From Candidatus Eiseniibacteriota bacterium (GTDB lineage Bacteria; Eisenbacteria; RBG-16-71-46; DASYSL01), in NCBI GenBank assembly GCA_031431875.1, contig JANPEF010000153.1, forward strand, positions 32,001 to 96,000: DNA of 64,000 nucleotides, read 5' to 3'. The notes beneath the pieces were generated by a model. It was not told where the DNA came from. It searched no databases and saw only the letters and a program-made list of their open reading frames with translations. Positions 39,315 to 54,709 of the stretch are shown here, in pieces; the first letter of the stretch is position 1; the number at the start of each line of letters is the position of its first letter. The translations under genes and the position numbers were made by a program.

Positions 39315-39341
39315 TCAAGCTCCTTTGCAACGTGCCGATGA
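39315..39341 (+). promoter_or_regulatory. Putative sigma28 (FliA) promoter of mglA
   Basis: TCAA-N15-GCCGATGA versus the consensus TAAA-N15-GCCGATAA. Confidence 0.7.
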
Positions 39342-39399: not shown

Positions 39400-40542
39400 G
39401 TGGTCGTCGTCAGCTACTCGGGCAAGGAAATCAACGCCAAGCTGGTCTATTACGGCACCGGGCTTTCGGGCAAGACGACGAACCTCGAGGCCATCTACGA
39501 AGCCGTCCCCGACAACAGTCGCGGGAAGATGGTGTCGATGAAGACGCAGTCCGACCGCACCCTGTTCTTCGACCTGCTGCCGCTCGACCTGGGCGAGGTC
39601 ATGGGGTTCAAGACCCGCTTCCTCCTCTACACGGTTCCGGGCCAGGTCTTCTACAACGCCACGCGCAAGCTGGTGCTCAAGGGTGCCGATGCGATCGTGT
39701 TCGTCGCCGACTCCGAACGCGGCAAGATGGACGAGAACAAGGAGTCGCTGTCGAACCTCCGCGCCAACCTCGCGGAGTACAAGGTCAACCTCGACGACCT
39801 GCCGTGGGTGCTGCAGTACAACAAGCGCGACCTGCCCGACGTCTACACGGTCGAGGAACTGAATCGCGAGCTCAACCCGAGCAACGTCCCCTGGGTCGAA
39901 GGCGTGGCCACCAAGGGCACGGGCGTCCTCGAGACGTTCCGCCTGGTGAGCCAGATGCTGCTCGAGCGGGTGACCAAGGACCTGCGACGGTCGCCCTCGA
40001 CGACCGGCGCGCGCGAGGTGCCACGTCCCGCACCGGCCCAGTCGCCGAGTGCGCCGCAGGCGGCCTCGGCCGGTCCGGTGGCGATGCCGTCGTCGCCCCC
40101 ACCGCCGACGTTCCGCGCGACTGCCGCTCCGGTCGCGCCGCAGGCTCCGAGTCCGTTTGCGCCGCAGCCGGTCGCCGCCGCACCATTGTCGCCGCTGCCT
40201 GCCATCTCCATGCCGCAGGTCCCCGGCCTGGTCACCGGATCATCGCCCTTCACTCCGTCCAGCCGGGGAGAGATCGGGACGCACCCGGCCGCAGACCGTG
40301 CCGACCGGAACGCGCCTGCCCCACCGCCGCTGCGCAGCATGCAGAAGGAGGGCCCCGGGCCGGTCATGGACCTCGGGACGAACTTCCAGCGCAACATCCA
40401 GTTGCCCACCGAGGAGCGCCTGGCCCGTCCGGCGGTCGCGAGCGAGCCGCTGGTGGTGCCCATCACGCTCGACGGCTCGGTGCGGGAGATCGTCCTGCGC
40501 ATCGTCATCGAGCAGAAGGAGCGCGTCGACCGCGCCGCTTGA
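39400..40542 (+). CDS. mglA: MglA-family small GTPase with long Pro/Ala-rich C-terminal extension
   Basis: 'EINAKLVYYG.GLSGKTTNL', 'DRTLFFD.LPL', 'YTVPGQVFYNATRKLVLKG.D', 'QYNKRDL'; GGAGG RBS. Confidence 0.9.
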   Translation: MVVVSYSGKEINAKLVYYGTGLSGKTTNLEAIYEAVPDNSRGKMVSMKTQSDRTLFFDLLPLDLGEVMGFKTRFLLYTVPGQVFYNATRKLVLKGADAIVFVADSERGKMDENKESLSNLRANLAEYKVNLDDLPWVLQYNKRDLPDVYTVEELNRELNPSNVPWVEGVATKGTGVLETFRLVSQMLLERVTKDLRRSPSTTGAREVPRPAPAQSPSAPQAASAGPVAMPSSPPPPTFRATAAPVAPQAPSPFAPQPVAAAPLSPLPAISMPQVPGLVTGSSPFTPSSRGEIGTHPAADRADRNAPAPPPLRSMQKEGPGPVMDLGTNFQRNIQLPTEERLARPAVASEPLVVPITLDGSVREIVLRIVIEQKERVDRAA

Positions 40543-42279: not shown

Positions 42280-42306
42280 TCATCGACCGGGCGGCGGGGG
42301 ACTTGA
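42280..42306 (-). promoter_or_regulatory. Putative sigma28 promoter of the micro-ORF/small RNA
   Basis: TCAA-N15-GTCGATGA on the minus strand. Confidence 0.6.
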
Positions 42307-42362: not shown

Positions 42363-44570
42363 TCAGAGGAACTTGAGGATCACGATCGTGCGGTCATCGG
42401 CCGGTCCGTCGCGGTGCCAGTCGGCGGCGGCGGCGAGCGCCCGGGCGGCAATCCGATCGGCCCGGAGGCCGCGATCGCGAGCGAGGACCTGGCCCAGGCG
42501 TTCGGGGTCGAACGGCGTGTCGCCCCGGAGGGCGTCGGTCAGACCGTCGGTGTAGAACGCGATCAGGCTGCCGCGCTCGAAGGTCCACTCGATCTCCTCG
42601 TAGGTCTCGCCCGAGGAGACGCCGAGGATCAGCCCGCCGTGCTCGACCTCCTCGTGGCGGCCGTCGGGGTGGACGACGATCGGCGGGTTGAGGCCCGCGT
42701 TTGCCCACGTCAGCGTGCGCCGCCGCGCGTCGAGCCGCGCGTAGGCGAGGCAGACGAACTTCTCGGGCTGGTGCAACTGCACCAGTTCCTCGTTGACGCG
42801 GACGAGTGCTGCGCCGGGGGCGAGGTCGTCGTCGACGCGGCTGCGCAGCCCTGCCTGGACGCCGGCGAGCAGCAGTGCCGCCGGCAGACCCTTGCCGCAG
42901 ACGTCGGCGATCGCCACGCCGAGCGTGCGCGGGCCGAGCGGGAGGAAGTCGTAGTAGTCGCCGCCGATCTCGCCGGCCGGCACGGTCGCGCCGGCCAGGT
43001 CGACGGTGGGGAGCACCGGTGCGGTGTGCGGCAGCAGGCGCTCCTGGATGCGGCGCGCCAGTTGCACGTCGCGCTCGAGCCCGGCGCGTTCGACCAGGCG
43101 ATCGTGGAGCACCGCGTTCTCGACGCGTGCCGACGCCTCGCGCGCGAACGCGGCCACCTGCTCGCGCTCGCCGGCGTCGAACCATGGACCCGACAGGCGG
43201 GGCCCGAGCGCGAGCACGGCGCGGCAGCGATCCTCGGCGAACAGCGGCACCAGCAGCGATGCGCCGTCCTCGCCGAGAGCGAGCTCGCCGGCCGTGAGCG
43301 GCGCGCGCGCCAGCGACAGCCGCTCGATCGCCGCCGCGGGCGGCGGATCGGCGAGGCGGCCGTGGCGCCTCGAGGCCTCGCCGTGCAGCGTCGCGAAGCG
43401 TGCAGCGCCGGCGGGGGAGACGGCGAACACCGCGCAGTGTTCGAGCCCGAGCGCGCGCACCAGCTCACCGGCCGCGTCGTCGAGCACCTGCGCCAGCGGC
43501 GCGAACGTGGCCGCAGCACTCACCGCGCCGGGTGTGCCGGGCTGCCGCGGCCGCTCGAAGCCAAAGCCGGCGCGCGGCCGCCCGCGCGGCAGCAGCGCGC
43601 CGCCGTCGAACACGCGATGGACGACGGTCGCGTAGCCGAAGCCCGCGGGCACGAGCAGAAGCCACAGCCCCGCGAAGTCCTCCCCCGGCCACGCGATTGC
43701 GGGCGCGACGTTCTTGGCCAGCGTCAGGAGTGCGAGCGGCACGAGCCCGAGCGTGACGCTCCACACGAGTGCGGTGAGACGCGGACGATGCTGCGCCGCA
43801 GCGCGCCGGTACCCGCCAACGAACGTGACGACGGCGGCGAGCACGGCGCCGCAGAGGAACAGCGCGGCGAGCGCTTCGTAAGCGCCGCCCGCGAGGAAGC
43901 GCGCGGCCGGCGCCGGCGCCATCCCGGAGCGCGACGACAGGTCGAGTCCGACGGCGAGGCCGAACAGCACGATGGCGCCGCCGTATCCGATCGCGGCGAG
44001 GCCGCGGCCCAGGCGTCCGGGTTGACCCTCGGGAAAGCGGGCGAAGAAGTCGACGAGCGCTGCCGGTAACAGCAGCGTGGCGAGCCCGCGCAAGGCCTCG
44101 AGCGCGGGGCCGCCCGGCGGACCGGCGAGCCACGCCGGTGCGACCGGATGGGGGGCGAGCGCCAGCGCGGCCGAGAACGCGAACAGCGCGAAGGCGAGGA
44201 CCAGGCGATCGCCGCGCGCCGCCAGGGCAACCGCGCCGACCAGCGCGAATGCGGCGGCGAGCACGAGAGTGACGATGGAACGGGCGCGTTCACTGGCGGC
44301 GGGTGCGGTGGCCGTGAGCGTGACCTCGCGATCACCGATGCGCGCGACGTAGGTCGCACCCGGAACGGCCGGGGGCGGGGCAGCGAGCCGGTCACCCACG
44401 GCGATGTCGGCGCGATCGGCCGCCCCGCCCCGGGTCACGGCCATGACGCGATCGCCGCGCAGGCGCACGCCCCAGCTGCCGCGCGACGGCAGCTCGAGCG
44501 CGACGGCGAGCACAATCAGTCCCGCCACAATGCCGTACCCCCACACGGAGGCCCGGAGGGAACGCGTCAT
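42363..44570 (-). CDS. Membrane-bound PP2C/SpoIIE (RsbU-like) phosphatase with PDZ-like, multi-TM and GAF-like regions
   Basis: 'ARRIQERLLP', 'IGGDYYDF', 'IADVCGKGLPAAL', 'NAG', 'YTDGLTD', 'DDRT'; N-terminal 'GGAADRADIAVGD' PDZ-like motif. Confidence 0.9.
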   Translation of the reverse strand: MTRSLRASVWGYGIVAGLIVLAVALELPSRGSWGVRLRGDRVMAVTRGGAADRADIAVGDRLAAPPPAVPGATYVARIGDREVTLTATAPAASERARSIVTLVLAAAFALVGAVALAARGDRLVLAFALFAFSAALALAPHPVAPAWLAGPPGGPALEALRGLATLLLPAALVDFFARFPEGQPGRLGRGLAAIGYGGAIVLFGLAVGLDLSSRSGMAPAPAARFLAGGAYEALAALFLCGAVLAAVVTFVGGYRRAAAQHRPRLTALVWSVTLGLVPLALLTLAKNVAPAIAWPGEDFAGLWLLLVPAGFGYATVVHRVFDGGALLPRGRPRAGFGFERPRQPGTPGAVSAAATFAPLAQVLDDAAGELVRALGLEHCAVFAVSPAGAARFATLHGEASRRHGRLADPPPAAAIERLSLARAPLTAGELALGEDGASLLVPLFAEDRCRAVLALGPRLSGPWFDAGEREQVAAFAREASARVENAVLHDRLVERAGLERDVQLARRIQERLLPHTAPVLPTVDLAGATVPAGEIGGDYYDFLPLGPRTLGVAIADVCGKGLPAALLLAGVQAGLRSRVDDDLAPGAALVRVNEELVQLHQPEKFVCLAYARLDARRRTLTWANAGLNPPIVVHPDGRHEEVEHGGLILGVSSGETYEEIEWTFERGSLIAFYTDGLTDALRGDTPFDPERLGQVLARDRGLRADRIAARALAAAADWHRDGPADDRTIVILKFL

Positions 44571-44655: not shown

Positions 44656-44683
44656 TCAAGCCCGCCCCGTGGGCTGCCGATCA
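44656..44683 (+). promoter_or_regulatory. Putative sigma28 promoter of csrA-flgM
   Basis: TCAAG-N15-GCCGATCA upstream of csrA. Confidence 0.65.
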
Positions 44684-44744
44684 CCCGGGCGAGGGGCGGA
44701 AGGGCCTGTGGACCCGATTCCGCCCCCGACCAGGGAGGTCCATC

Positions 44745-45011
44745 ATGTTGGTCCTGACAAGGAAGTTGGGCGAGAACATCCGCATCGGGGACGTGATCAA
44801 GATCACGGTCCTCGAAGTGCGCTCGGGCCAGGTGAAGCTCGGCATCGACGCGCCGCCGGAAGTGAAGGTGCATCGCGAGGAGATCTATGCGCGCATCCAG
44901 GCCGAAAATCGCCGGGCCGCAGCGACGTCGCCGGAGGCTCTCCGTGACGCCGCCCGGGATCTCCCCTGGTCGGCCGAAGAGCGCGGGCCGAAAGGACCTT
45001 CTCGACCCTGA
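44745..45011 (+). CDS. csrA: Carbon storage regulator CsrA (long, FliW-type C-terminus)
   Basis: '[49 protein letters not shown]'. Confidence 0.96.
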
Positions 45012-45048
45012 CCGCCGCGATCCGGTTCGCGGCCCGGGAAAACGGACC

Positions 45049-45246
45049 ATGAACCAGGACTCCAATCGCTCGCCCCGACTCGCCGTGCTGTCCCTCGTCG
45101 AAGCGATCGGCACGCCCGCCGCAGCCGTCCGTGCGGACCGCGTGCGCGCGGCGCGAGCCCGCGTCGACGGGGGCTACTACGATCGCATCGACGTCCGCCG
45201 AGCGCTCGTCGCCGCCCTGCTCGACCAGCTGGTCGCATCGTCCTAG
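45049..45246 (+). CDS. flgM: FlgM-like anti-sigma28 factor (short)
   Basis: 'VRADRVRAARARVDGGYY...LVAALL' resembles the FlgM C-terminal sigma-binding motif (R..KV..LK..I..G.Y). Confidence 0.65.
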   Translation: MNQDSNRSPRLAVLSLVEAIGTPAAAVRADRVRAARARVDGGYYDRIDVRRALVAALLDQLVASS

Positions 45247-45302
45247 CACCCACCGCACCTGCCGCCCGGTCCGCCGCACCTTTCTGCTAGACTGCGCGCG
45301 CC

Positions 45303-46532
45303 ATGGGCGCGCCCGCCAGGAATTCCACCCGCTCTCCACGAACTGCCGACACGAACGGGCCAGAGGCCGCGTTCGACGCCGAGTGCAACGCGCTTGCCGG
45401 CCTCGGAGACCTGCTCTCCGACGGCCTCGTCGTGTCCGATGCCGAGGGCAAGGTCCGCTACGCCAATCCCGAAGCCCTGCGCATGCTCGGCGCCACCGCG
45501 ACGTGGGTGCGCGCTCGGGTCACGGGCGAGGTGTTGCGCACCGCGGTGCCGGGCGCCGATCCGCTTGCCGACGCGAAGGCGGGGGAGCCGCAGGTCGAGG
45601 AGACGCTGCTGCTCACGAGGGCCGGCAACGAGGTGCCCGCGCGCGTCACGTTGCGGCGGCTCGCCTCGGGCGGCGCGTGCGCGGCGCTCCGGGACCTGAC
45701 GCAGGACCAGCGGCTGCAGCGCGAGCTGCGCCTGCGCGAGCGCCTCGCCACCGTCGGCGAGCTGGCCGCCGGCGTCGCGCACGAGATCCGCAATCCGCTG
45801 GCCGGGATCTCGTCGGCGGCGCAGGTGCTGCTGACGCGCTTCGAGCCGCGTGACGATCGCCAGAAGTTCTGCCGCGTGATCATCGAGCAGGTCGACCGGC
45901 TCGATCACACGGTGACCAGCCTGCTCAAGTTCGCGCGGCCGCCCGAGCCACAGTTGCGCCCGACGGTGCTGCCCGACGTGATCGAGCGCGTGCTCACGCT
46001 CGAGGCCGAGCGCCTCGCCGAGGGCAAGGTCGCGGTCGAGCGCCGCTACGCCGCCCGCGTGCCGACGCTCTACCTCGACCCGGGCCTGATCGAGCAGGTG
46101 CTGCTCAACCTGGTGCAGAACGCGGTCCAGGCCATGCCCGGGGGCGGTTCGCTCACGTTCGAGCTGGGCCTCGCCACGCGACGCACGCGCGGGGCGGAGC
46201 GCTCGCGCGGTCGCCGGACCCTCGACGCCTCGCCGGCGACGGCGGGGGGCGAGGCCGCGCGGATCGGCGGGCCCGACGAGATTCCGGTCGTGCGGCTGCG
46301 GCTGCTCGACACCGGCCTGGGCGTGCCGAAGGAAGTGCTGCCCCGCCTGTTCGATCCGTTCTTCACCACGAAGGCCTCGGGCACCGGGCTCGGGCTCTCG
46401 ATTTCGCAGTCCATCATCCAGGAACACGGGGGAGCGATCTCGATCGCCAGCCGCGAGGGACGCGGCACCACCGTCATCATCGAGTTTCCGCTGGAGAAAC
46501 GACATGGCCAGAGACGAGAAGACGCTCGCTAG
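45303..46532 (+). CDS. Cytoplasmic PAS histidine kinase (NtrB/AtoS/FleS-like)
   Basis: PAS domain; 'AAGVAHEIRNPL', 'QVLLNLVQNA', 'DTGLG', 'FDPFFTTK..GTGLGL'. Confidence 0.93.
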   Translation: MGAPARNSTRSPRTADTNGPEAAFDAECNALAGLGDLLSDGLVVSDAEGKVRYANPEALRMLGATATWVRARVTGEVLRTAVPGADPLADAKAGEPQVEETLLLTRAGNEVPARVTLRRLASGGACAALRDLTQDQRLQRELRLRERLATVGELAAGVAHEIRNPLAGISSAAQVLLTRFEPRDDRQKFCRVIIEQVDRLDHTVTSLLKFARPPEPQLRPTVLPDVIERVLTLEAERLAEGKVAVERRYAARVPTLYLDPGLIEQVLLNLVQNAVQAMPGGGSLTFELGLATRRTRGAERSRGRRTLDASPATAGGEAARIGGPDEIPVVRLRLLDTGLGVPKEVLPRLFDPFFTTKASGTGLGLSISQSIIQEHGGAISIASREGRGTTVIIEFPLEKRHGQRREDAR

Positions 46533-48012
46533 CACGACGGGCACCATCCTTGTGGTCGAGGACGAGCAGGCACAGCGCGAGACGCTGTGTGCGTTCCTCG
46601 GCGAGGAGTACACGATGCTCGAGGCGGGCAACGGCACGGAGGCGCTCGCGCACGTCAGCGAGAACCCGGTCGACCTGGTGTTCCTCGACCTGAGGCTCGG
46701 GCGCGAGGATGGTCTCGAGATCCTCAAAAAGCTGCGCGCCGAGGCGCCCGGCCTGCCCGTGATCATGCTCACGGCGCACGGCACGCCCGAGCATGCGTTC
46801 ACGGCGTACCGCCATGGCGCCGTGCACTTCATGTCGAAGCCATACAAGCTGGATGAACTGAAGGAGCGCGTCCGCTACGAGTTCGAGGCCGCCGCCTTGC
46901 GTCGCGAGAAGGAAAACCTCGAGGGGGTGCGCGCCGAGTTCGCCGGCCAGCCGCTGCTCGGCTCGAGCCCGGAGCTCAAGCGCGTGCTGGAGCAGATCAC
47001 CAAGATCGCGCGCCTCTCGACCTCGACCGTGCTGATCCGTGGTGAGACGGGCGCCGGCAAGGAACTCGTCGCGCAGCAGGTGCACGTGCAGAGTCCGCGT
47101 GGCTCGGGCCCGTTCGTCGAGCTCAACTGTTCGGCCGTTCCCGAGAACCTGCTCGAGTCCGAGTTGTTCGGCTTCGAGCGCGGCGCGTTCACCGACGCCA
47201 AGCGCACCAAGAAGGGCGTCTTCGAGATGGCCGCCGCGGGCACGCTGTTCCTCGACGAGATCGGTGAGATGTCGCTGGGCCTGCAGGCCAAGCTGCTCAA
47301 GGTGCTCGAGTCGAAGACATTCCGCCGGCTCGGCGGCACGGCCGACATCACGGTCGACACGCGCGTCGTCGCGGCCACCAATCGCGACCTGAAGAAGGAG
47401 GTCGAGCTCGGCCGCTTCCGCGAGGACCTCTACTTCCGGCTCCAGGTGATTCCCATCGAAGTGCCACCGTTGCGCGCCCGGGCGAGCGACATCCCGATGT
47501 TGTTGCGCCACTTCATCGATCGCTTCTCGCGCGAGGTGGGCCGCATGCCGGCGCGCCTCCATCCCGAGGCCGAGCGCCTGCTCGTCGGCTACGCGTGGCC
47601 CGGCAATGTGCGCGAGCTGCGCAACGTGATCGAGCGCATCGTGCTGCTCGAGAGTGACGAGGAGATCCGGCCCGAGCACCTGCCGTCCGAGATTTCGCGG
47701 CCGGCGGCGACGGCGAGTGTCGCGGGTGCGCCGGCGGCGACCAGTGCGGTGAGTGCGAGTGCCGGTGGTGGTGGTCCTGGCGGCGGCTCCGCCGCCGGGA
47801 CATCGGTGGGTGCGGTGTGGTTCTCGCCGGGCGTCATCATGCCCCTGGCCGAGGTCGAGATGCGGGCGATCCAACACGCGCTGGGCTGCGAGCGCGGCAA
47901 CAAGACGCGCGCGGCACAGGCGCTGGGAATCTCGCGCCAGACGCTGCGCACCAAGCTCAAGGAGCACGCCCTCGAAGAGGCGGCCGAGGGGGTGGACGAG
48001 GGCGGCGACTAG
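46504..48012 (+). CDS. Sigma54-dependent response regulator (REC-AAA+-Fis HTH; NtrC/FleR-like)
   Basis: 'GETGAGKE', 'ESELFGFERGAFTDA', 'LFLDEIGE', 'WPGNVRELRN', 'GNKTRAAQALGISR'. Confidence 0.95.
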   Translation: MARDEKTLASTTGTILVVEDEQAQRETLCAFLGEEYTMLEAGNGTEALAHVSENPVDLVFLDLRLGREDGLEILKKLRAEAPGLPVIMLTAHGTPEHAFTAYRHGAVHFMSKPYKLDELKERVRYEFEAAALRREKENLEGVRAEFAGQPLLGSSPELKRVLEQITKIARLSTSTVLIRGETGAGKELVAQQVHVQSPRGSGPFVELNCSAVPENLLESELFGFERGAFTDAKRTKKGVFEMAAAGTLFLDEIGEMSLGLQAKLLKVLESKTFRRLGGTADITVDTRVVAATNRDLKKEVELGRFREDLYFRLQVIPIEVPPLRARASDIPMLLRHFIDRFSREVGRMPARLHPEAERLLVGYAWPGNVRELRNVIERIVLLESDEEIRPEHLPSEISRPAATASVAGAPAATSAVSASAGGGGPGGGSAAGTSVGAVWFSPGVIMPLAEVEMRAIQHALGCERGNKTRAAQALGISRQTLRTKLKEHALEEAAEGVDEGGD

Positions 48013-48209
48013 TTCACGGCCGATCGGCCAGCTTGTGTCCATGATGTCACGAGGGGCGTCCCGCCGGGAGGCGGGGCGCCCCGAGTCGTTTTCCCTCCGC
48101 ACGCCCTCCGGACTGCACTCCATCGCATCGTCCTGCAATCGGTTGCGCCGCCGCGCCGCGGTCGACCGCGACCGCCCCGGCCCGGTTCCGTTCCGCCTTC
48201 GGCGGGGAA

Positions 48210-48225
48210 TGGCACAAAGCGTGCA
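48210..48225 (+). promoter_or_regulatory. Sigma54 -24/-12 promoter
   Basis: TGGCAC-AAAGC-GTGCA (GG-N10-GC) upstream of the receiver gene. Confidence 0.7.
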
Positions 48226-48278
48226 CTTTCCCCGGTTGCACGACCACCATCCACAGCGCAGGGAACGCGAGGACACCG

Positions 48279-48647
48279 ATGCCGCACATCCTGATCGTCG
48301 AAGACGAGCACGCCACCGCCTGGGCCCTCGAACAGGGGCTCTCGGACGAGGGCTACTCGATCGCCACCGTCGACAGCGCCGAGAAGGCGCTGGCTGCGGT
48401 GCGCGAGCGGCGTGCCGACCTCGTGATCACGGACCTTCGCCTGCCGCGCATGGACGGAGTCGAGCTGGTGCGCCGCCTGATGGGAAGAAAGCACGCCGCG
48501 CCGGTGATCGTCGTCACCGCATACGGCACGCAGCAGACGCTGCGCGACCTCGAGGATGCGGGGATCCATGCCTGCTTCCCCAAGCCCTTCCGCATGGAGC
48601 AGCTGCGGAAGAGCGTCAAGGCCGCGCTCGACGAGGCCGGCGCGTGA
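48279..48647 (+). CDS. Single-domain response regulator
   Basis: 'ILIVEDE', 'ITDLRLPRMDG', 'VTAYG', 'KPF'. Confidence 0.93.
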   Translation: MPHILIVEDEHATAWALEQGLSDEGYSIATVDSAEKALAAVRERRADLVITDLRLPRMDGVELVRRLMGRKHAAPVIVVTAYGTQQTLRDLEDAGIHACFPKPFRMEQLRKSVKAALDEAGA

Positions 48648-48889
48648 GCGGCGAGGATGCCGTTGCGGTCGCCCTCGATGGACTCGAGGGGGAGGCGCGC
48701 CTCGTGCTCGCGCTCCTCTTCATCGAAGGCTTGAACGAGGCCGAAACCGCCGCCGCGCTCGACCGTCCGGTCGCCCACGTTCGTCGGCTCGCCGGGCTGG
48801 CGCAGGGAGCGCTGGCGGCGGCACTCGCCGGTGCGGCCCGCCGGACGGCCGGTCCCACGCTCGCTTCAGGGAGGAAGCATGCGCCGTAA
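48644..48889 (+). CDS. Stand-alone sigma70 region-4-like HTH protein
   Basis: 'ALDGLEGEARLVLALLFIEGLNEAETAAALD' parallels FliA region 4 'LNRLPEQERIVVALYYYEHMTLREIGVTLG'; GTGA coupling. Confidence 0.6.
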   Translation: MSGEDAVAVALDGLEGEARLVLALLFIEGLNEAETAAALDRPVAHVRRLAGLAQGALAAALAGAARRTAGPTLASGRKHAP

Positions 48890-49136
48890 CGCCGCAACGT
48901 CGACCGAGAAGTCGACCGAGAAGTCGACCGAGAAGAAGCCGTTGGCCGCGCGTCTCACCCAGGTGCGTCGCATGGTCGAGCGCGTCGAGGCGGAGCGCGT
49001 CAAGTTCGAGGACGTCGGCCTGACGCGCCTGGCGCAAGAGAAGGCCCGCGAGAAGCGCTACTGGCAGTTCGTCCAGGCCGTGCTCGAGCTGCAGCCCTGG
49101 ATGGGCCAGACGCCGAGCCGGCACACGGTGCACTGA
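48879..49136 (+). CDS. Hypothetical small helical protein with STEK x3 repeat
   Basis: GGAGG RBS; coding-like codon usage. Confidence 0.6.
   Translation: MRRNAATSTEKSTEKSTEKKPLAARLTQVRRMVERVEAERVKFEDVGLTRLAQEKAREKRYWQFVQAVLELQPWMGQTPSRHTVH
48899..48934 (+). repeat. 12-bp tandem repeat GTCGACCGAGAA x3
   Basis: Seen directly; in-frame, encodes STEK repeats. Confidence 0.9.
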
Positions 49137-49413
49137 GCAACACGAGGACGATCGGACCGCATGGACGCGGTCGCACGGTTCCGCAGGGACGCGGGACGAT
49201 CCGGGCCCGGGAGCGTGACTCCCGGGCCCGACCATTTTCTGGCCGCACGACACGGGGACGCGCGATTCATGTTCAGTCGGCCGGGTCGGCGGCCGACAAC
49301 CGTCCAGCTCTCTCCCGCCGAAGGCGGGAGAAGCGATTTTGGTCAAGTTCATAACTCCTAGTCACATAAGCCGTTCACGCATTCACTTCAGATTGCCTCA
49401 CGGCCGTGCGCCG

Positions 49414-49428
49414 TGGCACGCGCCTTGC
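49414..49428 (+). promoter_or_regulatory. Sigma54 -24/-12 promoter of the fleN-fliA operon
   Basis: TGGCACG-CGCC-TTGC matches the consensus; an AT-richer tract lies upstream (49335-49372). Confidence 0.85.
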
Positions 49429-49485
49429 GTTTTGCCTCCGCGACCGACCCATCCGGGGTCGGGACCACGAAGACGGAGAGCGACC

Positions 49486-50373
49486 ATGGCCGACCTCAAA
49501 CTCGTTCCGCCCGCCCGCACCTCGCGGGGCACCGCCCGCAAGGGGGACGCCCGCGAGCACTTCGTGGCGCTGGCTCGTCCGACGGTGCGCACGATCGCGG
49601 TGACCAGCGGAAAGGGCGGCGTCGGCAAGAGCACGGTCTCGGCGAACCTGGCCGTCGCTCTGGGCGAGCTCGGCGCCCGCGTCATCCTGTTCGACGGCGA
49701 TCTCGCCCAGGCGAACCTGGACCTGTTGCTCGGCCTGTCGCCGCGCTGGGACCTGGGGCATGTGCTGCGCGGGGAGAAGACGCTCGACCAGATCGTGGTC
49801 GAGGGACCGCATGGCGTCCGCCTCGTGCCCGCCGCTTCGGGTGACCGCGATCTCGCCGACCTCGACGACTTCCGGCGCGAGGGCCTGTACCGCGAACTGT
49901 CGCGCCTGTCGGTCGACGCCGACCTCGTGATCATCGACACCGCCTCGGGAGCCTCGCACCTCACCTCGTCGTTCGCCCGTGCGGCGTCCGAGCTGGTGGT
50001 GGTGACGACGACCGAGCCGACGTCGTACTCCGATGCGTACGGCCTCCTCAAGGTGCTCGTCGCCCAGGGCCTCACGGGCACGCCGAACGTCCTGGTCAAT
50101 CGCGCGCCGTCGCTCGAGGAAGCCGAGGAGGTTGCACACGACCTCGCCTCGCTGACGCGCCGCTTCCTCGATCGCAACGTGAACTCGCTTGGCGCCGTGC
50201 CCGACGACCCCGCGGTCGGGCAGGCCGTGCGTCGCCGTCGTCCCGTCGTCGAAGCTGCTCCGAACAGTCCGTCCGCCCTCGCCTTCCGCACGCTGGCGGG
50301 TCGGTTGTGGGCCCGTCCGTCCGATCCGCGTCCGCAGGCGCTCTCCGGCGAGCGCCTGCGCCTGTCCGCCTGA
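49486..50373 (+). CDS. flhG: FleN/FlhG-family MinD-like ATPase
   Basis: 'IAVTSGKGGVGKS', 'DGDLAQANLDLLLG', 'EPTSYSDAYGLLK'; immediately precedes fliA. Confidence 0.85.
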   Translation: MADLKLVPPARTSRGTARKGDAREHFVALARPTVRTIAVTSGKGGVGKSTVSANLAVALGELGARVILFDGDLAQANLDLLLGLSPRWDLGHVLRGEKTLDQIVVEGPHGVRLVPAASGDRDLADLDDFRREGLYRELSRLSVDADLVIIDTASGASHLTSSFARAASELVVVTTTEPTSYSDAYGLLKVLVAQGLTGTPNVLVNRAPSLEEAEEVAHDLASLTRRFLDRNVNSLGAVPDDPAVGQAVRRRRPVVEAAPNSPSALAFRTLAGRLWARPSDPRPQALSGERLRLSA

Positions 50374-50393
50374 ACCGTCCGAGGAGATCGCCC

Positions 50394-51470
50394 ATGCCCC
50401 GTCTCTCGTCGACTCCGTCGCGCGCCCCGAAGGGCACGCCCCGCCTCACCCTGGTCAAGGGCGGCCGCGGCAAGCCCGTCCGCTCCGCGGCACTCCGTCC
50501 GGTCAAGGCCGTCGCCCGTACGACGAAGGCGACGACCGTCGCGGCGAAGCCGCCCCAGGCGAAGAAGTCGACGAAGCTCGTGCCGGCAAAGGCGGCCAGG
50601 CTCGTGCCGGCCAAGGCGCCCGTGGCGCGCGTCGCGCCGCACACGGCGATGCTGCGTGCGCCGCTGGCGCTGGTGCCCAGGAAGCCGCTCAAGGGCGCGG
50701 CCGAGATCGCGGCGGCGCGGGCCCGCGCGGCGGCGGCGAATGCGGCCGATCCGCCGGTGCGCGTGGCGCGCGAGAAGCTGCTCGAGCGCTACACGCCGCT
50801 CATCAAGTACGTCGTCGAGCGCCTGTCGGTCGGGCTGCCCAAGAACGTCGACCACGACGACCTCATGTCGGCCGGCATCCTGGGCCTGCTCGATGCCTAC
50901 GACAAGTTCGATGCGTCGAAGGGAACGAAGTTCGAGACCTACGCGGTGTGGCGCATCAAGGGCGCCGTGCTCGACCAGCTCCGCGCGCTCGACTGGGCGT
51001 CACGCTCGATCCGCCGCAAGGCGCGCGAGGTCGAGGCCTCGACGCGCCGGCTCGACCAGCGTCTCGGTCGCGCGGCCTCCGACGAGGAGGTCGCCAAGGA
51101 GGCCAAGATGCCGCTGGCCGACTACCACCGGCTCATGGACCAGGTGCGGGGCGCGGTGCTGCTGTCGCTCGACGAGACGCGCTCGCCCGAGGAGGGCGAC
51201 TCGCTCGGCCTGGCCGAGCTCATCGAGGACCCGAACGTGCCGGACGTGCTGGCGCGCATCGAGGAGGAGGAGACGCGTCTCGTCCTGCTCGACACGCTCA
51301 ACCGCCTGCCCGAGCAGGAGCGCATTGTGGTCGCGCTCTACTACTACGAGCACATGACCCTGCGCGAGATCGGCGTCACGCTCGGCATCTCCGAGTCGCG
51401 CGTGTCGCAGGTCCACTCACGGGCCGTCGTCCGTCTCAAGAGCCGCGTCCGTCGCGCGCTCGCCGCCTGA
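50394..51470 (+). CDS. fliA: FliA/WhiG-family sigma factor (sigma28) with basic N-terminal extension
   Basis: 'GLPKNVDHDDLMSAGILGL.DA', 'KFETYA.WRIKGAVLDQLRALDW.SRS.R', 'LREIG..LGISESRVSQ'. Confidence 0.95.
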   Translation: MPRLSSTPSRAPKGTPRLTLVKGGRGKPVRSAALRPVKAVARTTKATTVAAKPPQAKKSTKLVPAKAARLVPAKAPVARVAPHTAMLRAPLALVPRKPLKGAAEIAAARARAAAANAADPPVRVAREKLLERYTPLIKYVVERLSVGLPKNVDHDDLMSAGILGLLDAYDKFDASKGTKFETYAVWRIKGAVLDQLRALDWASRSIRRKAREVEASTRRLDQRLGRAASDEEVAKEAKMPLADYHRLMDQVRGAVLLSLDETRSPEEGDSLGLAELIEDPNVPDVLARIEEEETRLVLLDTLNRLPEQERIVVALYYYEHMTLREIGVTLGISESRVSQVHSRAVVRLKSRVRRALAA

Positions 51471-51477
51471 GGATCCC

Positions 51478-51888
51478 GTGACCCTGCCCCTGCCGAACCC
51501 TGACTTCGAGCCCGTGCCCCGGGAGACCGGCGATCCGGCGTTGCTCGCGCTGGCCGGGCGCCTGCGCGCGCGCGGCGACGCCGCGAGCATTTCGCTGGCG
51601 GACGAGCTCACGGCCGAGGCCCGGCGCCTGGGTGCCGAACGGGACGCCACGCTCCAGCGCATGTTCGAGAGCCTGGCGGTGAACCACGACGTCAACAACG
51701 CGCTGGTCGGGATCTTCGGCAACGCGCAGCTGCTGGGCCTGGGGCCCGCGGGGCAGATCCCGGGCGTCGCCGACCGGCTCGCCGTGATCACGCGCGAGGC
51801 GAACCGCATCAAGCAGGCGGCCCTGCGCATCGCGGAGCTCAAGCAGGGCCTGCTCGCGCGGCCGCTCGATGACGGCGGTGCGGCGTGA
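51478..51888 (+). CDS. Small protein with isolated HisKA-like phosphoacceptor motif
   Basis: 'AVNHDVNNALVGIFGNAQLL' H-box; no ATPase domain. Confidence 0.65.
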   Translation: MTLPLPNPDFEPVPRETGDPALLALAGRLRARGDAASISLADELTAEARRLGAERDATLQRMFESLAVNHDVNNALVGIFGNAQLLGLGPAGQIPGVADRLAVITREANRIKQAALRIAELKQGLLARPLDDGGAA

Positions 51889-52994
51889 GCCCGCGCGCGA
51901 AGGGAACCAGGCCAGGAGCGAAGTCGACCCGTCGCACGCCCGCCGCGGGCGAGGGTGCGGCGGCTCGGCTGGCCGCGCTGGCCGACATCGTTGCGCTGGT
52001 GCGCGAGCGCCCCGACGCGGACGACGCGCTCGGCCGGGCCCTCGATCGCCTCGGCGAGACCGTGGCGTTCGAGAGCGCGACCTTCTTCCTGCTCGATGAC
52101 GTGAGTGGCGAGCTGCAGCCGGTCGCCACGCGCGGCGCACACGTCGACCTGATTCCGGAAGTGCGCTTCGACCTGGGCGTCGGACTGTCGTCGTGGGTGG
52201 CGCGCACCGGCCGACCGGTGCTGCTGTCCGACCTGCGGGGCGAGGCGCGGCCCGACGCAGTCGATGCGCCCCGACACGGCTCGTTCGTGTCGGTGCCGAT
52301 GGTCGTCAACAGGGTGTCGATCGGCGTGCTCAACGCGGGCAGCCGGGAGCCGGGAGCGTTCAACGAAGCCGATCGCGACCTCCTGGTCGCCGCCGCCGCC
52401 GCGCTCGCCGCGCCGATCGTGGCCCGCCGCGCTGCGCGCGACGCCGACCGCCGGCCGGGCGCCGATCCGGCGACGGGCCTGCTCAACCGGCTCGCCTTCG
52501 AGGAGCGCGTCGCCGAGGCGATCGAGCGCGGCCGTCGCTACGCCGAGCGCTGCGCCATCGTCGTCCTGTCGTTCGACGGCCTGGCCGCCCTGCGCCGCAC
52601 GGCGGGGCTGACCGTGGCTGGCGAGGCGCTGGTCGCGATTGCCGGGCTGCTGACGGCCCGGGCGCGGCAGAGTGACCTCGTGGCCCGGCTGGTCCCCGAC
52701 GACGCCTTCGCGCTGCTGCTGGCGCACCAGGGCGCCGACGCCGCAGGGCGTGCCGTCGAGCGGCTCGCCGCGACGATCGCACGCCACCCGTTCGCCGATC
52801 TTCGCCGCTGCACGCCGGGCACGGGCGTCGCCCTGTGGCCCGTCGCGACCGGCCCCGGCGCGGATGGATTCGCCTCGGCCGCGACCTGCGCCCAGGAACT
52901 CGTCGCCGCGGCGCTCGCCGCCGCGCGCGTCGACGCCGCGGTGGATGCATCCGCGGATCCCGTGGTGCCGCCCGCCCCCGCGGAGGCCGCGTGA
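51885..52994 (+). CDS. GAF + degenerate GGDEF protein
   Basis: GAF ('GLSSWVARTGRPVL', 'SFVSVPM...IGVLN'); 'DPATGLLNR'; active site region reads 'RQSDLVARLVPDDAF'. Confidence 0.85.
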   Translation: MSPRAKGTRPGAKSTRRTPAAGEGAAARLAALADIVALVRERPDADDALGRALDRLGETVAFESATFFLLDDVSGELQPVATRGAHVDLIPEVRFDLGVGLSSWVARTGRPVLLSDLRGEARPDAVDAPRHGSFVSVPMVVNRVSIGVLNAGSREPGAFNEADRDLLVAAAAALAAPIVARRAARDADRRPGADPATGLLNRLAFEERVAEAIERGRRYAERCAIVVLSFDGLAALRRTAGLTVAGEALVAIAGLLTARARQSDLVARLVPDDAFALLLAHQGADAAGRAVERLAATIARHPFADLRRCTPGTGVALWPVATGPGADGFASAATCAQELVAAALAAARVDAAVDASADPVVPPAPAEAA

Positions 52995-54709
52995 ACCTGT
53001 CGGCCGAGGGTCTGGCGATCCCGGGGCGCATTCTCGTCGTCGACGACGAACCCGCCGTCGCCGAGGTCTTCCGCGACTACCTGACGCTCATGGGCGGCCA
53101 CGAGGTCGAGACACGCTCGTCGGGCGCGCTCGCGCTCGAGGCGTTCGAGGCGTTCGAGCCCGAGGTCGTGCTCACCGACCTCAACCTCGATCGCGACATG
53201 TCGGGGCTCGACCTGATGCGCCGGCTCAAGGCGATGAACCCGGACGTGCCGGTCATCCTGGTCACCGGGCAGGTGTCGATCGCCTCGGCGATTGCCGCAC
53301 TGCGCGAGGGCGCCTACGACTACATCACGAAGCCGTGCGACCTCGAGGAACTGGGCCAGCTCCTCGGGCGCGCGCTCGCCTCGCGTCGCCTGACCGAGAC
53401 CAACCGCAAGCTGATGTCGGAACTGAAGACCGCGAACGAGATCCTGTCGCGTCACGAGTCGGAGCTGCGCGAGCGGATCCACGTCGCGACGTGGCGCATG
53501 CGCACGCTGTTCGAGCTGTCGAAGGACATCGCCCGCGACCTGGGGATCGAGTTCCGCTCGCGCGTCATCTCCGAGAAGGCCCGCCAGATCACCGGTGCGG
53601 CGAGCTCGGCGTTGTTCATCGCCGGCGAGGAGGACGGCATCTTCCGGGCCCGCGCCGTGTCGGGCTTCGAGGGACCCGGCGGCGGGCCCGAGGGCCTCGT
53701 CTTCCGTTCCGAAGAGGGCCTCAACGGCGTCGTCGCCGCGAGCCAGACGCCGATCCGGCGCGGCGGTCGCGTGCACGCCGAGGGGCTGGGCCTGCCCGTG
53801 CCCGCCGGCGAGCCGTGCGAGGGCGTGCTCGTCGTCCCGCTGGTGGCCGACGCGCGCGTCGTGGGCACGCTCATGGTGATGGGGAAGGCCGGCGGCTTCA
53901 CCCAGGACGACGAGGACTTCCTCGCCCTGTTCGCCTCGTCGGCGGCCATCGCGCTCACCAACTCGATGCTGTTCGAGCAGACGCTCGAGCTCGATCGCCT
54001 GAAGTCGGACTTCGTCGCCGTCGTCTCGCACGAGCTGCGCACACCGCTCGCGGTGGTGCTCGGCAACCTCGAGCTGCTGGGCGACGAGCGGTTCTGGACG
54101 CTCAACCCGCAGCAGGGGCAGTTCCTCAAGAGCGCCACGACGAACTCGCACCGCCTGCTGCACCTGATCAACGACATCCTCGACTTCTCGAAGCTCGAGA
54201 ACTCGAGCCTGCCGATGACCCGCTCGCCGAACGAGCTGTCCGAGGTCATCAGGCAGACGGCGGAGAACCTGGCCCGCCTGTTCGAGGAGCGCGAGCTCAA
54301 CCTCAAGCTCGACCTCGCGGCCGACCTGCCGCTGGCCGAGATCGACGAGCAGCGCATCGCGCAGGTTCTCACCAACCTGATCTCCAACGCGATCAAGTTC
54401 TCGCCCGCGGGCGCCCCGGTCGAGGTCACCGTGCGGCACGAGGACGGGCAAGCCGTCGTACGCGTGAGCGATCACGGCGAGGGCATCCGCCGCGAAGACA
54501 TGCCGCGCCTGTTCAAGAAGTTCTCGCAGCTCGACTCGCGCTCGACCCGGAAAGTGGGCGGCACGGGGCTCGGGCTGGCCATCTGCAAGGGCATCGTCGA
54601 GGCGCACGGCGGCCGCATCTGGGCCGAGAGCGAGCCCAACGAGGGCAGCACGTTCATCTTCACCCTGCCCCTGGCCGCCGACGCGGCCGACGCGGCGCAG
54701 GCGGCCTAG
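52991..54709 (+). CDS. Hybrid sensor kinase REC-GAF-HisKA-HATPase
   Basis: 'ILVVDDE', 'GAYDYITKP', 'VSHELRTPL', 'NLISNAIKF', 'GGTGLGLAI'. Confidence 0.93.
   Translation: MNLSAEGLAIPGRILVVDDEPAVAEVFRDYLTLMGGHEVETRSSGALALEAFEAFEPEVVLTDLNLDRDMSGLDLMRRLKAMNPDVPVILVTGQVSIASAIAALREGAYDYITKPCDLEELGQLLGRALASRRLTETNRKLMSELKTANEILSRHESELRERIHVATWRMRTLFELSKDIARDLGIEFRSRVISEKARQITGAASSALFIAGEEDGIFRARAVSGFEGPGGGPEGLVFRSEEGLNGVVAASQTPIRRGGRVHAEGLGLPVPAGEPCEGVLVVPLVADARVVGTLMVMGKAGGFTQDDEDFLALFASSAAIALTNSMLFEQTLELDRLKSDFVAVVSHELRTPLAVVLGNLELLGDERFWTLNPQQGQFLKSATTNSHRLLHLINDILDFSKLENSSLPMTRSPNELSEVIRQTAENLARLFEERELNLKLDLAADLPLAEIDEQRIAQVLTNLISNAIKFSPAGAPVEVTVRHEDGQAVVRVSDHGEGIRREDMPRLFKKFSQLDSRSTRKVGGTGLGLAICKGIVEAHGGRIWAESEPNEGSTFIFTLPLAADAADAAQAA

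Follow-up and report, generated by a model that had tools for sequence, protein, structure and literature searches.

Here we describe a cluster of flagellar regulatory genes without a flagellum in a 64,000-nucleotide stretch of DNA (the window; contig JANPEF010000153.1, here C153, positions 32,001 to 96,000) from an uncultured soil bacterium, a Candidatus Eisenbacteria metagenome-assembled genome (MAG; assembly G000, 166 contigs totalling 3,753,964 bases, marker-gene completeness 98.45%). As a preliminary description of the window had proposed, csrA, a flgM-like open reading frame (ORF), a PAS kinase, a sigma-54 activator, flhG, fliA and further signalling genes form one co-oriented cluster on the + strand, and phosphorelay and cyclic di-GMP (c-di-GMP)-type genes, encoding a DHp-like protein, a GAF-GGDEF protein and a REC-GAF-histidine kinase, follow fliA. 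It appears that every gene for building a flagellum has been lost and that the regulatory genes have been retained in their original order. We consider it probable that this flagellar skeleton has been repurposed into a cascade ending in a sigma-28 switch on pilus and surface genes, and that the cascade is maintained by selection.

The origin of the cluster is seen by comparison with G010, a flagellated relative from the same order (family f2). We compared all 77 ORFs in the 100 kb around its fliA with G000 by BLAST; the Pfam scan of G010 covered the 61 ORFs from 119 kb onwards, with three boundary-crossing ORFs excluded. Between 111 and 195 kb of contig C4, G010 encodes an MglA-like protein, a PP2C phosphatase, rod genes, flgN-flgK-flgL-fliW, csrA, glycosyltransferases, flagellin, fliD and flgM, then a kinase, a sigma-54 activator, a receiver (REC) protein, cheR, a second REC and a sigma-70 region-4-only protein, then flgC, fliF, fliG ... 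flgD, flgE, flbD, motA, motB, fliL, fliM ... flhA, flhF and finally flhG, fliA, a GAF-GGDEF gene and a REC-GAF-kinase gene, after which come the same housekeeping genes as on C153. Every regulator in this list has an orthologue in G000, the PP2C phosphatase included, and the order is identical; in G010 about 55 kb of structural genes are interspersed. Identity between the orthologues is 77% for the MglA-like protein, 74% for csrA, 52% for the kinase, 46% for the activator, 52% for REC, 45% for flhG (over 306 aa), 59% for fliA and 41% for the REC-GAF-kinase. The sites that hold flagellar genes in G010 are direct regulator-to-regulator junctions on one G000 contig. Because G010 has the same regulators in the same order with structural genes between them, we take the cluster to be the regulatory skeleton of an ancestral flagellar super-locus (~75-90 kb) after loss of all structural genes.

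Flagellar genes are missing from the 64 kb, as first described, and from the whole 3.75-Mb assembly. Profile searches of the assembly gave no match to FHIPEP/FlhA, Flagellin_N, FliF or Flg_bb_rod (the rod/hook N-terminal family), and none to CheW; as positive controls, the four flagellar families match in 4 of 14 named genomes and CheW in 8 of the 14. The annotated flagellar structural proteins of G010 have no homologue in G000 (tblastn, E <= 1e-3) except for two partial-domain matches, to the OmpA-like part of MotB and the Ig-like part of FlgD, and at the same threshold there is no match to G010 FlhF (SRP54 domain), the usual partner of FlhG. In the window's own family (f1), FlhA occurs in 0/9 other genomes and FliA in 8/9, the sole miss being a genome that is 53% complete. 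The preliminary description also listed fliW as absent; this holds for the window and not for the genome, where fliW lies on contig C115 beside a second csrA.

What the retained switch might control was approached through its promoters. Sigma-28 factors of the FliA/WhiG type recognise promoters of the form TAAA-N15-GCCGATAA. The E. coli-type consensus TAAA-N14-16-GCCGATA has 0 matches in the genome and its looser core form one, and it was replaced by the flagellin consensus of relatives. The flagellin promoters of f2, a family with no sigma-28 other than the window-type FliA, read T(A/C)AAGTT(T/C)-N11-GCCGA(T/A)(G/A)A. G000 contains 9 exact matches to this pattern at the correct spacing; five wrong spacings tried as controls gave 0-4, and the reversed sequence gave 3. 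Intergenic matches lie before pilM (pilN and pilO come next, and pilD is on its upstream side), the MglA-like gene, a 20-codon micro-ORF and several secreted proteins. At a score of at least 11.5 of 13 the motif occurs in 15/30 pilM upstreams (at ~120-150 nt) and 11/29 mglA-like upstreams, versus 17/1528 background G000 upstreams, and the csrA promoter is present in 13/13 clusters that include csrA (51-63 nt upstream in 12, 126 nt in G034).

We also trained a weight matrix exclusively on 51 sites from relatives. At scores of at least 21 it finds 11 matches in G000 and 3 in the reversed sequence of G000, and at scores of at least 17 the counts are 68 and 24. The best match of the matrix in G000 precedes a gene for a 171-aa DUF11-type secreted protein, which by its length and DUF11 match is probably a surface-fibre gene, and another precedes a PilB/MshE-like ATPase (T2SSE 450 bits, MshEN 82.6 bits). 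In these two gene sets, which lie outside the training sites, the motif was found in 21/28 usable PilB-like upstreams and 10/18 DUF11 upstreams, versus 23/1528 in the background; in five further DUF11 upstreams a TAAAG...CCGATA element is present with its register shifted by one base, and GCCGATA(A/C) stands at -37 to -63 in nearly all 28 usable PilB-like upstreams. The ATPase (C88:19277-21427, or L144:1277-3427) has a C-terminal zinc ribbon, is additional to the canonical PilB on C132 and has close orthologues in f1 and f3 only; MshEN is a known c-di-GMP-binding module. A motif scoring 24.0 also lies 29 nt upstream of accB (C25:17845-17872), probably by chance.

The MglA-like protein matches the solved MglA structures 6h17, 5ymx and 3t12 over residues 3-193 (E = 1.1e-69), extends ~190 aa beyond the G domain and is found in 41/41 relatives, where its gene mostly shares a contig with fliA at a distance of 8-11 kb. 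Nearly all relatives also have a second MglA-like paralogue (36-48% identical); many of these matches contain an in-frame TGA, which may mark a gene end. We infer that the sigma-28-type sites would drive the pilus, PilB-like, MglA, DUF11, micro-ORF and csrA-flgM genes. With conserved sites before type IV pilus genes, the MglA GTPase gene and the surface-fibre gene, surface motility is a fitting output, and the earlier proposal of a sigma-28 switch repurposed for a non-flagellar developmental or surface-motility programme is supported in silico.

The pilM promoter appears to have changed hands. Sigma-28-type sites precede pilM in 7/7 f1 and 16/23 f3 genomes, with sigma-54 sites in 0/7 and 0/23; in flagellated f2 the counts are 0/3 for sigma-28 and 3/3 for sigma-54, in flagella-less f18 also 0/3 and 3/3 (TGGCAT-N5-TTGCT at -73), and in flagella-less f15 0/2 for both. 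Before the mglA-like gene the sigma-28 site occurs in 7/9 f1 genomes (4/9 also have a sigma-54 site further upstream), 10/19 f3 genomes and 0/3 f2 genomes, the last having sigma-54-like sites scoring 8-9 of 11. Sigma-54 control of pilM thus looks ancestral, and sigma-28 control looks derived in the f1+f3 lineage. That sigma-28 control of pilM is a general rule was rejected by f18 (sigma-54-type) and f15 (neither). The f18 pilM matches L223-L225 (G155, G149, G156) each contain one in-frame TAG, reflecting either gene-end overrun or recoding.

It is also possible that the sigma-28 module is functional and that its real regulon consists mainly of signalling or other targets, the matches upstream of pilus genes serving a different sigma factor or none. 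We regard this as unlikely, but with a real chance of being right. Matrix matches are enriched only ~2.5-3.7 times over the control, f18 and f15 keep FliA without a sigma-28 site at pilM, and other top matches precede kinases and unrelated secreted proteins; against this, the distance from the motif to pilM, to the PilB-like gene and to csrA is conserved and the spacers between its two halves have diverged, the motif matches the flagellin promoters of relatives, and at pilM it replaces the sigma-54 promoter seen in f2 and f18.

Several considerations count against the reading of a repurposed pilus and surface switch: (i) the sigma-28 regulon is predicted from sequence only and, because the genome-wide enrichment is modest, many single matrix matches, such as that before accB, are probably chance; (ii) the pilM and mglA counts for f1 and f3 are partly circular, those sites having trained the matrix, whereas the 13-point consensus scoring, the PilB-like and DUF11 gene sets and the f2/f18 contrast are independent of the training; (iii) sigma-28 control of pilM is not the general reason for FliA retention across the phylum; (iv) in flagellated f3 genomes that hold both the cluster and a second flagellar sigma-28, cross-talk with flagella is possible; (v) several minus-strand genes of G010 (fliI, fliPQR, flhB) were mis-called, and the comparison with G000 does not include these singly; and (vi) the relatives compared are not independent samples. 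One unpublished genome (G007) makes up one row in the tallies of relatives, and no statement rests on it alone.

The cluster does not look like a module in decay. It is syntenic, as far as each contig extends, in 14/14 f1/f3 loci fetched, so that the gene order which the preliminary description had singled out for comparison holds in related genomes. The PP2C phosphatase is syntenic in 11/12 f1/f3 loci reaching upstream of csrA (it was not found in L032), p136, the DHp-like gene, in 14/14 and specifically in f1/f3 clusters, and REC in f1, f3 and f15; the pair of REC and a following region-4-only gene is conserved in 13/13 clusters and also in flagellated G010. small85 has weak to strong tblastn matches at the same position in 12/12 clusters, the FlgM-like ORF was found in 8/12 loci spanning csrA to the kinase (tblastn E <= 1e-5), and an orthologue of the hybrid kinase follows the GGDEF gene in f1, f2, f3, f4 and f18. 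Within the flagella-less genus, we compared G000 with G002 and with G004 (values in that order) for the ratio of non-synonymous to synonymous substitution (dN/dS): the FliA sigma domains give 0.03 and 0.18, FlhG 0.05 and 0.23, CsrA 0.00 and 0.11, and the sigma-54 activator 0.09 and 0.21. Given this conserved order and the purifying selection, the module is judged to be kept across two families, with its core regulators constrained. Retention extends further: among 153 phylum genomes at least 85% complete, FliA is present in 146 and FlhA in 53, and FliA in 96 of the 100 that are FlhA-negative. In f18, FlhA occurs in 0/30 genomes and FliA in 29/30, and other flagella-less families keep subsets of the cluster, flhG-fliA...GGDEF-kinase in f18 and kinase-activator...REC-fliA-GGDEF in f15.

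These data make it very improbable that the cluster is a decaying relic of recent flagellar loss with no present function. Some parts have indeed eroded: FlgM has been shortened, the GGDEF motif has degenerated, and dN/dS reaches 0.78 for the FliA N-terminal extension and 0.81 for the full-length FlgM-like ORF (the latter against G002). A relic would not, however, be expected to show intact reading frames in an identical order in 14 loci of two families, core dN/dS of 0.03-0.23, conserved sigma-54 and sigma-28 promoters within the cluster and FliA retention in nearly all FlhA-negative genomes of the phylum.

With regard to the direction of change, deletion is far more economical than insertion, because the reverse would need several insertions that rebuild canonical flagellar neighbourhoods and because in distant flagellated families (several f4, f5 and f7 genomes) fliA lies a few kb from flhA; in f4 the only locus examined, that of G044, reads flhG-fliA-GGDEF-kinase. 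FliA itself is the only gene in G000 over the FliA/WhiG cut-off (PRK06986 235.4 bits vs 201, with sigma-70 regions 2, 3 and 4 all found). A FliA tree of 27 rows, an analysis that the preliminary description had suggested, groups the window FliA with f2 flagellar FliA: the window-type copies of f1, f2 and f3 fall in supported clades with short branches between them. The second FliA of flagellated f3 genomes, which lies beside flhA, is 38-40% identical and has a branch of 2.48 substitutions/site. This contrast between short branches and one long one indicates that the window FliA is a vertical descendant of flagellar FliA and that the present flagella of f3 are a second system. The reverse direction, a regulator cluster that is ancestral and flagellar genes inserted into it in f2, merits hardly any credence: the species tree is unrooted and the FliA tree leaves basal relations unresolved, but at least four separate insertions would have been needed, recreating flgN-K-L-fliW-csrA, fliD...flgM and flhA-flhF-flhG-fliA, and the f4, f5 and f7 loci would still have to be accounted for. 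It is just as improbable that the flagellar genes are present but unassembled or unbinned and the cluster simply part of a dispersed flagellar regulon, the outcome against which the preliminary description had asked for a check, since, although absence from a MAG, here one of 166 contigs, is never proof by itself, the genome is nearly complete, no complete flagellar gene set was found in G000, the family and CheW profiles, FlhF and the G010 structural proteins left only the two partial-domain matches, FlhA is lacking from all nine other family genomes and the regulator junctions are contiguous on a single contig.

The phylum contains a second, divergent flagellar system with its own flhA-flhG-fliA (FlhA ~780-846 bits), found in some f3, f6, f11 and f13 genomes; loci L040-L043 (G013, G024, G038, G034) belong to it. 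A second FlhA is present in several f4 genomes, where dual flagellar systems seem to exist.

The FliA of f1 and f3 has a Lys/Ala/Pro-rich N-terminal extension of ~125 aa (50394-50759 in the window), which evolves almost neutrally and is lacking in f2 FliA (264-274 aa); an alternative GTG start lies at 50307. FlhG has the deviant Walker A motif GKGGVGKST and is encoded directly upstream of fliA, as in G010, where it sits between flhF and fliA; the NCBIfam MinD models stay below their cut-offs on it.

Both sigma-54 promoters of the preliminary description are present, and only 3/3000 random 300-nt genome segments score as well. The one upstream of REC scores at least 10 of 11 in 12/14 orthologous clusters; the one upstream of flhG is conserved in 4/4 f1 clusters and was not found in 10 f3 clusters. 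To these we add three sigma-28-type promoters that had not been mentioned. The named genes of the earlier list likewise stand, and two small conserved genes that it had missed, those of the region-4-only protein and small85, are added. All features are collected in the table that follows; the window is ~72% G+C, and reading frames in it were picked by third-position G+C (GC3).

Table. Genes and predicted promoters of the cluster and its upstream flank (window coordinates)
Feature	Position	Strand	Evidence or comment
Sigma-28-type promoter TCAAG-N14-GCCGATGA	39315..39341	+	58 nt upstream of MglA-like gene; matrix score 21.7
MglA-family small GTPase with C-terminal extension	39400..40542	+	residues 3-193 match MglA structures
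Tryptophan-rich micro-ORF, 20 codons	42162..42224	-	ORF read from sequence
Sigma-28-type promoter TCAAG-N14-GTCGATGA of micro-ORF	42280..42306	-	matrix score 20.4; G012 flagellin promoter geometry
GAF-PP2C (SpoIIE-type) phosphatase, divergent	42363..44570	-	PF07228 138.7 bits
Sigma-28-type promoter TCAAG-N15-GCCGATCA	44656..44683	+	61 nt upstream of csrA
csrA, 88 aa	44745..45011	+	PF02599 90.7 bits (curated cut-off 27); TIGR00202 94.5 bits (curated cut-off 70.1)
FlgM-like ORF, 65 aa, putative truncated FlgM	45049..45246	+	homology to G010 FlgM
PAS histidine kinase	45303..46532	+	HisKA, HATPase_c, PAS_4 domains
REC-AAA+-HTH sigma-54 enhancer-binding protein, NtrC type	46504..48012	+	Sigma54_activat 227, Response_reg 95, HTH_8 47 bits
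Sigma-54 promoter TGGCAC-N5-GTGCA	48210..48225	+	53 nt upstream of REC gene
Stand-alone receiver (REC) protein	48279..48647	+	Response_reg 100 bits
Sigma-70 region-4-only protein, 81 aa	48644..48889	+	PF04545 24.7 bits (cut-off 24.1); GC3
small85, 85 aa, RYW motif, no known family	48879..49136	+	GC3 frame signal
Sigma-54 promoter TGGCAC-N5-TTGCG	49414..49429	+	56 nt upstream of flhG
FlhG/FleN-type MinD ATPase	49486..50373	+	ParA, AAA_31, CbiA domains
FliA (sigma-28)	50394..51470	+	TIGR02479 252 bits (cut-off 189.6)
DHp-like (H-box) protein p136, 136 aa	51478..51888	+	HisKA sub-threshold, E = 0.011
GAF + degenerate GGDEF protein	51885..52994	+	GAF_2 60.7 bits; GGDEF 55.3 bits, partial
REC-GAF-HisKA-HATPase hybrid kinase	52991..54709	+	domain matches; longest ORF from 52835

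The FlgM-like ORF stays below the Pfam gathering threshold (PF04316, 14.2 bits vs 25), with sub-threshold matches in 5/9 orthologues, and it is the best match to the FlgM profile in the whole genome at only 12.7 bits. Its assignment comes from G010, whose own FlgM passes Pfam (28.4 bits): in BLASTP the two align at 56% identity over the last 32 aa (E = 2e-10), and hhalign of nine FlgM-like orthologues against three true FlgMs gives 98% (E = 2.9e-13). G010 flgM also lies between fliD and the kinase gene, which is where the window ORF would come to lie if the structural genes were taken out. Orthologues of the ORF measure 58-85 aa, compared with 104-107 aa for true FlgM, and what is missing is the N-terminal half with its SDExDISxEA segment; in FlgM proteins that have been studied this half carries the flagellar export signal. 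The ORF is thus best described as a truncated FlgM in which only the C-terminal, sigma-28-binding part appears to be kept, and by homology it would bind FliA. Because there is no flagellar export apparatus, and with the N-terminal half lost as well, the protein would have to be controlled inside the cell, in agreement with the earlier suggestion that FlgM must be inactivated by something other than export.

One candidate for such control is the REC/region-4-only pair (48279-48889). The GTG start of the region-4-only gene overlaps the REC stop codon, and its product is homologous to the 104-aa region-4-only protein of G010 (E = 2e-4), which matches FliA region 4 at 38% identity. That the window protein is a recent copy of FliA region 4 was rejected, the similarity being insignificant (E = 0.33). 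The pair might be a split PhyR-type anti-anti-sigma factor, a phosphorylation-controlled decoy that replaces the FlgM export checkpoint: on phosphorylation of the receiver the free region-4 domain would bind the shortened FlgM and sigma-28 would be released, so that a two-component signal, and not completion of the hook-basal body, would license the sigma-28 programme. We think this quite unlikely to be correct in this form. The region-4-only protein has a faint PhyR sigma-like match (E = 0.094), and a complex prediction with the FlgM-like protein scored 0.40 (best control 0.01), which supports the pairing weakly; contact agreement between runs is at least 92%, with a partner predicted local distance difference test (pLDDT) of at least 61. 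The mark used is reached by 116/157 solved complexes and 2/215 mismatched pairs; when counting is confined to scores of 0.60 or below, the figures are only 18/157 and still 2/215. These counts hold only roughly here, the prediction having been made from our own alignments. Solved sigma-28/FlgM complexes exist, and the mark may have been reached through likeness to them.

The GGDEF protein encoded after fliA has VPDDAF in place of GGDEF, which does not qualify as a diguanylate cyclase motif, and retains its RxxD site. The GG(D/E)EF motif is intact in 3/3 loci with flagellar genes (G010, G012, G044) and degenerate in 15/16 loci without them (the exception is G038), with RxxD kept in all rows; four loci that gave no alignment are excluded from this tally. 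Degeneration of the motif thus appears to track the loss of flagellar genes. The probable GTG start of the hybrid kinase overlaps the GGDEF stop codon. p136, small85 and a 148-aa protein of G010 match no Pfam family over cut-off, and the idea that p136 corresponds to the 148-aa protein, which has the same position, was dropped for want of similarity.

The G010 counterpart of the window CsrA (74% identical) is encoded directly after fliW in the flagellar locus. The fliW on C115 is followed by a second csrA (79 aa; L052:8877-9647) near rpoD and dnaG, with a TGGCAC-N5-TTGCT sigma-54 promoter ~130 nt upstream of the pair and no sigma-28 promoter upstream of fliW (best matrix score 8.9). With the query used, FliW was found in 7/9 f1, 3/3 f2 and 0/28 f3 genomes. 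In the passages available from a CsrA survey, few Eisenbacteria CsrAs are predicted to act on a B. subtilis flagellin reporter (PMC13443453), which fits a changed CsrA target set. The flagellin leaders of G010, G012 and G014 (L053-L055) share a conserved stretch with GGA motifs, one GGA lying at the ribosome-binding site, as expected for CsrA-repressed flagellin mRNAs.

The sigma-54 activator combines REC, AAA+ and a Fis-type HTH, and RpoN is encoded on C106 (209 bits). Its loop reads GAFTDA, a one-residue variant of the usual GAFTGA. The equivalog models (FlgR, FlbD, NtrC) all stay below their cut-offs on this protein; by position it is FleR/FlgR-like. The PAS kinase is the orthologue of the G010 kinase upstream of the flagellar activator and has the same relative position.

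A scenario that would join these parts is as follows. The PAS kinase would phosphorylate the sigma-54 activator, which would then fire the sigma-54 promoters of REC/region-4-only/small85 and, in f1, of flhG-fliA. FliA would transcribe a non-flagellar regulon, which in f1 and f3 would comprise pilMNO, the PilB/MshE-like ATPase, the MglA GTPase, the DUF11 gene and the micro-peptide gene, giving a pilus-based surface output. It would also transcribe its own brake, csrA-flgM, a negative feedback through an anti-sigma factor and translational control, and the block by the non-exportable FlgM would be lifted intracellularly, through proteolysis or a partner. The GGDEF protein, the DHp-like protein and the hybrid kinase, presumably co-transcribed with fliA, would feed c-di-GMP and phosphorelay signals into the switch, the c-di-GMP information probably coming from the degenerate GGDEF protein, which keeps its c-di-GMP-binding site.

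The comparison with G010 offers a before-and-after view of a regulatory hierarchy losing its machine, the same neighbourhood in one order with and without ~55 kb of structural genes. From it one can read off the regulators that survive, the parts of them that decay (in FlgM the export half, in the GGDEF protein the cyclase motif) and the promoters that change hands (pilM, from sigma-54 to sigma-28). Regulators without a flagellum are the rule and not the exception in this candidate phylum (96/153 genomes). If our reading is correct, sigma-28 in these soil bacteria would be a pilus and surface-behaviour sigma factor; annotation would be affected, as fliA, flgM, flhG and csrA in MAGs are routinely taken as evidence of flagellar motility, and the system would bear on how anti-sigma checkpoints are re-plumbed.

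There is precedent for such retention, and to call flagellar regulators without a flagellum rare would be an overstatement: non-flagellated Legionella (PMC5655016) and the WhiG proteins of Streptomyces and other Actinomycetota (PMC12871210) both provide examples in the passages seen of these two papers. Our literature search found nothing on flagellar regulators of Eisenbacteria, and no precedent for sigma-28-controlled pili after flagellar loss beyond the Legionella review and the WhiG preprint. Lysobacter enzymogenes was considered as a precedent for FliA-controlled twitching and set aside, the passages of PMC9927559 at hand making no mention of FliA.

The closest parallel is in Legionella. 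According to the part of the review that we draw on, L. oakridgensis keeps only fliA and flgM, and its FlgM is a functional brake that is apparently degraded and not exported; a subclade with L. longbeachae keeps FliA, FleN, FleR/FleS and FlgD; and L. israelensis keeps fleQ, fliA, fleN and flgM (PMC5655016). G000 resembles this state in that, as far as those excerpts describe it, loss of the structural genes has spared sigma-28, FlgM, FleN/FlhG and a sigma-54 two-component pair, FlgM would be non-exportable and flgM expression is sigma-28-dependent (here by a predicted promoter). G000 is thus of the Legionella type, with no structural genes and with fliA and flgM intact as reading frames and conserved. 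The differences are that our genomes belong to another phylum, in which this is the majority condition; that the whole set, including CsrA, the region-4-only protein and the GGDEF and kinase genes, forms one block in ancestral order; and that FlgM is truncated, the predicted regulon is one of pilus, MglA and fibre genes, and pilM has passed from sigma-54 to sigma-28. L. oakridgensis has been tested experimentally, whereas G000 is known from its DNA alone. Chlamydial sigma-28 likewise controls late developmental genes in a non-flagellated bacterium; we know of no FlgM/FlhG/CsrA block of this kind in Chlamydiae.

In Actinomycetota, the portions seen of a 2026 preprint distinguish a flagellar WhiG1 clade from a non-flagellar WhiG2 clade, with predicted regulons that include type IV pili (PMC12871210). 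Within those portions, the likeness lies in a sigma-28-family factor used for non-flagellar programmes, in two lineages per phylum of which one is tied to a flagellar cluster, in predicted type IV pilus regulons and in a link to c-di-GMP. The systems differ in that the predicted anti-sigma here is a shortened FlgM and not RsiG (no search for RsiG was made), that the non-flagellar copy is, on our evidence, a vertical descendant of flagellar FliA that still sits beside flhG, and that c-di-GMP input would come through the degenerate GGDEF protein in the fliA operon.

The FlgSR system of Campylobacter belongs to the sigma-54 to sigma-28 hierarchies of polar flagellates. The FleQ/FleSR/FleN/FliA cascade of Pseudomonas and Legionella, so far as the review passages describe it (PMC5655016), resembles the window in having a kinase and sigma-54 activator upstream of flhG-fliA, FlhG/FleN encoded directly before fliA and flgM driven by sigma-28 (in our case by prediction). 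G000, by contrast, lacks class II/III structural targets and FlhF, and no FleQ-type master regulator was identified, a FleQ domain match staying sub-threshold (21.7 vs 22 bits). As for the FliW-CsrA-flagellin switch of B. subtilis, outlined in the sections available of PMC13443453, the window csrA appears to descend from a flagellar fliW-csrA pair, and G000 retains one such pair. It has no flagellin to titrate FliW, however, and the window csrA no longer stands next to fliW and has acquired a sigma-28-type promoter, with fliW-csrA2 lying elsewhere behind a sigma-54 promoter. What sets the cluster apart from all of these precedents is the preservation of the ancestral order beside a flagellated sister locus, together with the truncation of FlgM, the degenerated cyclase motif and the change of promoter at the pilus genes.

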